Shown piece by piece: positions 1 through 571 of a stretch of 571 nt of DNA. Source of the stretch: Escherichia coli (GTDB lineage Bacteria > Pseudomonadota > Gammaproteobacteria > Enterobacterales > Enterobacteriaceae); the NCBI RefSeq assembly GCF_003334335.1, contig NZ_QOWQ01000169.1; one strand, 5' to 3'. The translations under genes and the position numbers were made by a program. The first letter of the stretch is position 1, and every line of letters begins with the position of its first letter. The notes beneath the pieces are model-generated. The model saw only the letters and a list, made by a program, of their open reading frames with translations. It was not told the origin of the DNA and ran no database searches.

Positions 1-571
1 TATCGGAGACATCGCGCAGCGGGGAGACAGTACGCTACCGCTACGATGACGCGCACAGTGAGTTACCGGCGACGACAACGGATGCGACGGGCAGCACCCG
101 GCAGATGACCTGGAGCCGCTACGGGCAGTTGCTGGCGTTCACCGACTGCTCGGGCTACCAGACCCGTTATGAATACGACCGCTTCGGCCAGATGACGGCG
201 GTCCACCGCGAGGAAGGCATCAGCCTTTACCGCCGCTATGACAACCGTGGCCGGTTAACCTCGGTGAAAGACGCACAGGGCCGTGAAACGCGGTATGAAT
301 ACAACGCCGCAGGCGACCTGACTGCCGTTATCACCCCGGACGGCAACCGGAGCGAGACACAGTACGATGCGTGGGGAAAGGCGGTCAGCACCACGCAGGG
401 CGGGCTGACGCGCAGTATGGAGTACGATGCTGCCGGACGTGTCATCAGCCTGACCAACGAGAACGGCAGCCACAGCGTCTTCAGTTACGATGCGCTGGAC
501 CGGCTGGTACAGCAGGGCGGCTTTGACGGGCGGACGCAACGTTATCATTATGACCTGACCGGAAAACTCAC
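1..571 (+). CDS. rhs: Rhs-family YD-repeat protein, internal fragment of the conserved core (partial at both ends; first complete codon at nt 3, last complete codon ends at nt 569)
   Basis: Frame with codons at 3,6,9... is open across the whole window (189 codons); plus frames 1 and 2 carry in-frame TGA stops at 106-108 and 47-49. Translation contains repeated xxGxxxRYxYDxxGRLxxV-type motifs (e.g. LYRRYDNRGRLTSV at nt 225-266, MEYDAAGRVISL at 417-452, RYHYDLTGKL at 540-569), which are diagnostic of Rhs/YD-repeat proteins. From memory the sequence closely resembles the E. coli-type Rhs core; the paralog (rhsA/B/C etc.) cannot be assigned from this fragment, so only the family symbol is given. 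GC-rich codon third positions are consistent with the known GC-rich Rhs core. Confidence 0.9.
33..569 (+). repeat. Tandem array of ~9 degenerate YD repeats (protein-level repeats of ~20-21 aa; RHS repeat family)
   Basis: In-frame Y-D (or variant Y-G / Y-N) dipeptide codons at nt 42-47 (YD), 120-125 (YG), 174-179 (YD), 237-242 (YD), 300-305 (YN), 363-368 (YD), 423-428 (YD), 486-491 (YD), 549-554 (YD). Spacing between successive motifs is 78, 54, 63, 63, 63, 60, 63, 63 nt. Each is preceded by a glycine-containing turn and followed by G-(R/D/K)-(L/V/A). Nucleotide-level similarity between units is low, so this is a protein-structural repeat rather than a DNA direct repeat. Confidence 0.85.

Follow-up and report, generated by a model that had tools for sequence, protein, structure and literature searches.

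A 63-nt phasing in Escherichia coli rhsD as the trace of the classical YD (RHS) repeat in the coding sequence

Why do tyrosine-led dipeptides recur every 63 nt in a short stretch of Escherichia coli DNA, and what becomes of this rhythm in the first units of the stretch? The window, i.e., the whole stretch of 571 nt that was analysed, encodes Tyr-X dipeptides at positions 42 (YD), 120 (YG), 174, 237, 300, 363, 423, 486, and 549. From 174 onward, the intervals are 63, 63, 63, 60, 63, and 63 nt, and the first three motifs are spaced 78 and 54 nt. These positions and spacings, reported in an initial annotation of the window, are exact, but two of its assignments have to be corrected: the motif at 300-305 (TAC AAC) encodes Tyr-Asn instead of Tyr-Asp, a strict YD being present at six of the seven phased positions, and the Y-G at 120 is out of register. 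The 63-nt rhythm is best explained as the trace that the classical YD (RHS) repeat of RhsD leaves in its coding sequence, and to this reading we assign a probability of about 0.96. As a discovery this matters little; the practical gains are that the window is secured as rhsD, that the 78/54 anomaly is resolved, and that two departures from the regular period are mapped to specific turns.

Over its 571 bases, the window matches nt 1499-2069 of rhsD of E. coli K-12 MG1655 with 100% identity; in the K-12 record (L001) it lies at 6001-6571, within the rhsD coding sequence at 4503-8783. Frame +3 (nt 3-569) is open over all of its 189 codons and frames +1 and +2 of the window contain many stops; translated, the window gives residues 501-689 of RhsD, an Rhs core protein of E. 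coli K-12. Of 5,426 complete E. coli genomes, 3,660 contain related sequence (median copy number 3 per genome), and the E. coli copies are annotated in every case as rhsD or as "RHS element core protein". Full RhsD matches the NCBIfam equivalog RHS_core (NF041261) with 2787.7 bits against a cutoff of 2000, profile positions 1-1261 being covered, while YD_repeat_2x (TIGR01643) scores 158 bits against a cutoff of 15.8 and Rhs_assc_core (TIGR03696) matches RhsD at 1181-1258. The YD repeat in the window is a known and ordinary feature, the E. coli Rhs proteins being the founding example of the family. The definition of their YD repeat dates from the 1990s, and since 2013 solved structures of several homologues have revealed its hairpins and the cocoon that they form. 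More specifically, rhsD has been placed in the rhsDE subfamily (PMC2935791), and it was on E. coli Rhs proteins that Wang, Zhao and Hill (1998, cited in PMC4436062 and PMC10684867) defined the YDxxGRL(I/T) consensus.

The phasing is real and far beyond chance. In the translated window, the BLOSUM62 autocorrelation peaks at lag 21 (z = 8.6) and reaches z = 6.2 at lag 42, and a chain of 7 Y[DN] motifs at 20-22-residue spacing was obtained in 0 of 5,000 shuffles, the longest shuffled chain having 3 motifs. The Pfam family RHS_repeat (PF05593) has four matches in the window protein (E 1.5e-6 to 9.7e-13) and two weaker ones at the edges, with match starts that fall exactly on Y79, Y121, Y141, and Y162. 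The units follow the consensus Y-D-x-x-G-R-L-[VIT]-x-x-T-[DN]-x-[DN]-G-x-x-x-R-[YF]-x, in which positions Y/W1, D/N2, G5, R/Q6, L7, G15, and Y/F20 are conserved (per-position conservation 0.87 for Y/W, 0.90 for D/N, 0.75 for G5, 0.70 for L7, 0.78 for G15, and 0.72 for Y/F20).

When the intervals from nt 42 are counted between homologous positions, they are 69, 63, 63, 63, 63, 60, 63, and 63 nt, which corresponds to unit lengths of 23, 21, 21, 21, 21, 20, 21, and 21 residues. We list the units below with the evidence for each. Homologue counts come from an alignment of RhsD 60-1258 with 39 representatives (40 rows), which includes 26 near-full-length homologues at 32-66% identity, and use the rows that cover each unit. 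Secondary structure was assigned by DSSP on an AlphaFold2 model built from the same alignment (mean pLDDT 86.9, pTM 0.80, pLDDT 83-95 over the window).

3-569, + strand: open reading frame inside rhsD, residues 501-689 of the 1426 residues of RhsD; frame +3 open, 100% K-12 identity.
3-41, + strand: last 13 residues of a regular unit of 21 residues, whose start, RhsD Y493, lies upstream of the window; unit HMM, DSSP E-----EEEEE-----EEEEE.
42-110, + strand: unit 1, 23 residues, YDDAHSELPATTTDATGSTRQMT, the variable-length unit of the family; DSSP of the model, Pfam, and lengths in homologues.
111-173, + strand: unit 2, 21 residues, W-S (TGG AGC) in place of Y-D; Pfam, unit HMM, homologues, and the same DSSP as the regular units.
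174-236, + strand: unit 3, 21 residues, YDRFGQM..., full unit YDRFGQMTAVHREEGISLYRR; motif and DSSP, 21 aa in 30 homologues.
237-299, + strand: unit 4, 21 residues, YDNRGRL...; the best Pfam RHS_repeat match starts here (E 9.7e-13).
300-362, + strand: unit 5, 21 residues, Y-N start; codons TAC AAC, homologues.
363-422, + strand: unit 6, 20 residues, with a 2-residue Gly-Gly second turn; DSSP E-----EEEEEE--EEEEEE.
423-485, + strand: unit 7, 21 residues, YDAAGRV...; motif, Pfam, and DSSP, 21 aa in 33 of 33 covering homologues.
486-548, + strand: unit 8, 21 residues, YDALDRL..., full unit YDALDRLVQQGGFDGRTQRYH; motif, homologues, and DSSP.
549-569, + strand: start of unit 9 (YDLTGKL...), which runs past the window end and has 20 residues in RhsD; motif and DSSP.

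Two other candidate features of the window were rejected. Open reading frames on the antisense strand (up to 97 aa, at 255-548 on the - strand) are an expected by-product of coding DNA of 63% GC and have no support, and a non-coding or RNA reading finds in Rfam (E-value mode) only CRISPR-DR20 at 232-270 (-), whose 19.2 bits against a gathering score of 42 and E of 0.28 indicate a chance match.

The spacing is not particular to RhsD. A search of 1.84 billion cluster representatives returned 142,512 proteins at E ≤ 0.001, including 14,833 at E ≤ 1e-30, and the unit lengths are identical in most of the 26 near-full-length homologues. The units at RhsD 537, 558, 579, 641, and 662 have 21 residues in 28-33 sequences. 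The Y-N unit (RhsD 600) has 21 residues in 23 sequences, YN being the commonest dipeptide at this place (13, versus 8 with YD), and the short unit (RhsD 621) is 20 aa long in 24 homologues, 4 others having 21 aa. Motifs that fail to correspond to successive hairpin units, or a spacing that varies among homologues, had been named beforehand as grounds for giving up the repeat reading; what we observe is that the HMM, the alignment of the units, and the predicted structure return the motifs as successive repeat units, once W-S is taken for unit 2, and that their spacing is conserved.

Some of the units have features of their own. In unit 8 (YDALDRLVQQGGFDGRTQRYH), Asp replaces the "invariant" Gly at repeat position 5, and the model keeps the 5-residue turn. 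This Asp is conserved in 31 of 34 homologues, which indicates a position-specific feature of that hairpin instead of drift. The second turn of unit 3 (YDRFGQMTAVHREEGISLYRR), REEG, is a 3-residue helical turn (HHH) in the model, its length still being 21. We also observe that many giant proteins (2,300-7,800 aa, with up to 32 separate matched stretches) best match RhsD at about 420-710, a stretch of canonical hairpins of which the window is a sample.

The second unit is where the initial annotation left the register of the repeat. It is Trp-Ser at nt 111-116 that takes the place of YD in this unit, at a distance of exactly 63 nt from the motif at 174; the Y-G at 120-125 occupies repeat positions 4-5, its Gly being the one conserved at position 5 of YDxxG. 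Among the 38 positions of the Pfam RHS_repeat model, Y-D is found twice, at 1-2 and at 22-23; model positions 2-36 align without gaps to residues 38-72 of the window protein, with position 22 on Y58 and position 1 on W37. When the six regular units are made into a unit HMM, RhsD 539-559 likewise falls on model positions 3-23, with G541 on position 5. In the phmmer alignments, this region reads RKMRWNSSGQLLEHLDCSGYPTRFEYD in 7q97 and RRLEWNRFGLLAALTDCSGQVWRYDYD in Tse5 (8cp6), compared to RQMTWSRYGQLLAFTDCSGYQTRYEYD in RhsD, with WNSSGQLL in 7q97 and WNRFGLLA in Tse5 at unit 2. Among the covering homologues, the dipeptide of unit 2 is W[N/S/T/D] in 24 and Y[N/T] in 4, and its length is 21 in 28. 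Moreover, W537 closes a strand in the AlphaFold2 model, as the Tyr of the other units does, and another W-S unit occurs in RhsD at residue 870. Such replacements are in line with the Tse5 study, which gives His, Arg, Trp, or Phe as common substitutes for Tyr, and Asn or Ser for Asp (PMC10684867). The 78/54 spacing thus arises mostly because a non-homologous dipeptide (Y-G) was picked, the real pair being 69/63. More generally, scans for the literal YD mis-phase degenerate units, and it is better to anchor the register on the conserved Gly at +4 and on the Leu at +6. We also note that the segment after W-S, GQLLxxTDCSG, is unusually well conserved in the family, including its Cys (consensus LxWxxxGQLxxxTDCSG).

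With the register corrected, only two real irregularities are left in the window, the 23-residue unit at nt 42-110 and the 20-residue unit at nt 363-422, and both changes in length are confined to turns. Unit 1 (RhsD 514-536) lacks the position-5 Gly, and the DSSP assignment of the model shows a 10-residue loop in place of the 5-residue DxxG turn, followed by a strand of 3 residues; the Pfam match at residues 1-32 requires a 2-residue insertion in this unit. Its length in homologues ranges from 22 to 43 aa (23 in 10 sequences, 28 in 5, and 24 in 4), the counterpart in 7q97 having 21 aa and that in Tse5 having 24. Unit 1 is the variable-loop site of the family, i.e., a hot spot of loop length inside a continuous sheet. 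The idea that the 78/54 pair reflects a longer loop holds in so far as the 23-residue unit 1 carries a 10-residue loop, but the pair itself was a mis-registered 69/63. In unit 6, a tight Gly-Gly turn replaces the second 5-residue turn and the strands are slightly longer; the 60-nt interval is due to this 2-residue turn. The variable loop of unit 1 directly precedes the conserved W-x-x-x-G-Q-L-x-x-x-T-D-C-S-G unit, and we consider it unlikely, if conceivable, that it is a functional surface or cavity loop instead of neutral slack. If it were functional, it might, for instance, serve as a contact to VgrG, to a chaperone, or to the toxin enclosed in the cocoon, or be a site tuned between Rhs clades.

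The predicted structure gives the rhythm a physical counterpart. When the model was compared to the PDB with Foldseek, the best matches were solved Rhs cocoons of type VI secretion systems (T6SS), namely Tse5 (8cp6), with TM 0.80/0.88 over about 1,200 columns, and 8qja, 7q97, 8uxt/8uy4, 7pq5, and 8h8b, at TM 0.70-0.88. Every 21-residue unit of the model shows the DSSP pattern E-----EEEEE-----EEEEE, that is, two strands and two turns, with Tyr or Trp at the end of a strand. RhsD is thus predicted to adopt a closed β-cocoon fold in which each unit is modelled as one β-hairpin, with YD at the transition from strand to turn. This agrees with published descriptions, in which DXXGR forms a turn and the Tyr faces the cavity in Tse5 (PMC10684867), and in which the YD motif marks the change from a strand to a sharp turn (bioRxiv 10.1101/2024.02.26.582050). 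The proposal of the initial annotation that the motifs belong to β-hairpin YD/RHS repeats of an Rhs shell is borne out by the Pfam and NCBIfam matches, by the DSSP assignment of the model, and by its similarity to Tse5. The iterated unit HMM, run on RhsD alone, misses the degenerate hairpins past residue 750, yet these are present in the predicted structure.

In the mechanism that we propose, the Tyr (or Trp) of each unit would be the last residue of a strand and D-x-x-G-R would form a 5-residue turn. A 5-residue strand (L-T-x-V-x) would follow, then a second 5-residue turn with the second conserved Gly, and the closing 6-residue strand of the unit would end on the next Tyr. Hairpins added side by side in this manner would form a continuous antiparallel sheet, which, by analogy with the homologues and the literature, would spiral into a closed cocoon, within which the C-terminal toxin domain stays until it is delivered. 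The Tyr and Trp side chains would line the cavity, as described for Tse5 (PMC10684867), and the toxin (DUF4329) would be released after autocleavage at DPxG-x18-DPxG, as in homologues. Selection on hairpin geometry, instead of a recent duplication of the DNA, would maintain the fixed period. The functional role of the shell in K-12, including the delivery of RhsD, is here modelled on homologues and may be similar.

Three other explanations have to be weighed against a run of coded hairpins. The initial annotation had suggested that the irregular first pair reflects an indel or a degenerate unit at a structural transition, which would make the first two units a domain boundary with Y-G as a degenerate YD. 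Part of this is correct, since unit 1 is truly atypical (23 residues, no position-5 Gly, a long loop) and 2 residues longer than a regular unit, and a degenerate motif does exist, although it is the W-S at 111 and not the Y-G at 120, which belongs to repeat positions 4-5. The transition itself is contradicted by the model: units with the same DSSP pattern continue upstream at RhsD 429, 451, 472, and 493 (21-22 residues) and downstream at 537-683, and the pLDDT stays at 91-94 through unit 1. Regular hairpins on both sides of unit 1 imply that no structural transition occurs there, and we regard a boundary as very unlikely. An older view of Rhs proteins, WapA, and teneurins would instead see in the YD repeats an extended, filament-like surface structure that binds carbohydrates or other ligands; indeed, the YD-repeat has been described as "associated with carbohydrate binding", with a suggested function in cell-surface binding (PMC2935791), and a review from 2015 terms Rhs proteins "large filamentous proteins" (PMC4436062). 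The solved homologues are nevertheless all closed cocoons, on which the RhsD model superposes, and RhsD has the shell-closing Rhs_assc_core as well as the DPxG-x18-DPxG motif, which leaves the filament with hardly any likelihood.

The last alternative is that the 63-nt rhythm is a tandem repeat of the DNA itself, created by recent duplication or slippage, and a substrate for recombination or phase variation. The regular spacing and the family name "rearrangement hot spot" are all that speaks for it. Tandem Repeats Finder at a minimum score of 30 returned 0 rows for the window, a repeat-family search of the window returned 0 families, and direct repeats of at least 12 nt are absent. At a lag of 63 nt, DNA identity reaches only 0.35 and third codon positions show no excess; the units share only their motif residues, at the protein level. 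Furthermore, unit number and length are stable in homologues at 32-66% identity, and the historical Rhs rearrangements involved recombination between multi-kilobase paralogous cores and not between 63-nt units (PMC2935791). The periodicity is confined to the protein level, there is no DNA tandem repeat, and the probability that we give to this explanation is close to nil. The classical YD repeat of RhsD, encoded unit by unit, is the reading that we retain.

Compared to known systems, RhsD belongs to the E. coli RhsA-E core proteins (NF041261), and we find no difference from their architecture of a GC-rich core, an AT-rich tip, and PxxxxDPxGL. Its closest solved relative is Tse5 of Pseudomonas aeruginosa (T6SS, 8cp6; E = 7e-122, about 31% identity), which shares with RhsD the hairpin repeat and a W-N unit followed by TDCSG. 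Tse5 differs by its C-terminal toxin, which is pore-forming in Tse5 and DUF4329 in RhsD, and by its variable unit of 24 aa instead of 23, and the alignment with RhsD shows other indels around the 20-residue unit. The cocoon fold and the repeat register are also shared with 7q97, 7pq5 (Photorhabdus laumondii, Tre23), Tse15 (8uxt/8uy4), the Rhs cores of Salmonella bongori and Advenella (8qja-d), and RhsP (8h8a/b). Against the RhsD model, these solved T6SS Rhs cocoons give TM 0.61-0.75 by query and 0.62-0.88 by target, and they differ from RhsD in their N-terminal domains and toxins. The alignment with 7q97 is nearly gapless in the window region, but in 7q97 the variable unit is a regular one with an H-D start, and the unit of 20 aa in RhsD has 21 aa.

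The resemblance to Tc toxins and teneurins, to which the initial annotation had also referred, is weaker. The BC component of Tc toxins (TcdB2-TccC3, 4o9x; YenB/YenC2, 4igl) and the YD-shells of teneurins (6fb3 and others) share with RhsD a shell of hairpin repeats and the Rhs_assc_core region, but with TM 0.31-0.52 and 11-15% identity they are much more distant than the T6SS Rhs cocoons. The Tc shell is, moreover, split over two proteins, and teneurins are eukaryotic receptors. On the window protein, the Pfam family TEN_YD-shell (PF25023) gives E = 1.8 and 7, neither being significant. RhsD is of the same fold class as the teneurin and Tc shells and is not a member of that family.

Outside the window, the rhsD locus is a classical Rhs composite with the usual array of displaced tips. 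GC content is 0.62-0.68 in the core and 0.32-0.45 in the tip, the core ending with PxxxxDPxGL at RhsD 1249-1258. An aspartyl-protease motif, DPxG-x18-DPxG, lies at RhsD 1232-1257, where autocleavage is predicted. The C-terminal tip (RhsD 1259-1426, L001 8277-8780) contains DUF4329 (Pfam E 5.6e-38), to which none of the libraries searched gives a named toxic activity. The N-terminal part (RhsD 1-166, L001 4503-5000) contains DUF6531 at 46-123 (E 2e-19) and has only weak matches to PAAR_motif (E 0.046 and 0.51). Directly downstream of rhsD, ybbC encodes a protein of 122 aa of the YbbC/YhhH family, which has no match in NCBIfam and occupies the position expected of an immunity gene. It is followed at L001 9215-9901 by an annotated orphan pseudogene fragment, "RHS repeat-associated core" (ybbC and the fragment together span 8823-9901).

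Several minor features were observed elsewhere in RhsD. The AlphaFold2 model has a low-confidence, Ser-rich stretch near RhsD 260-290, and five α-helices occur in the otherwise all-β shell at RhsD 1074-1143 (model 1015-1084), just before Rhs_assc_core. Finally, PVNPLLGAKVLPGE at RhsD 48-61 resembles PVxxxxGE, the N-terminal autocleavage motif reported for T6SS Rhs proteins.
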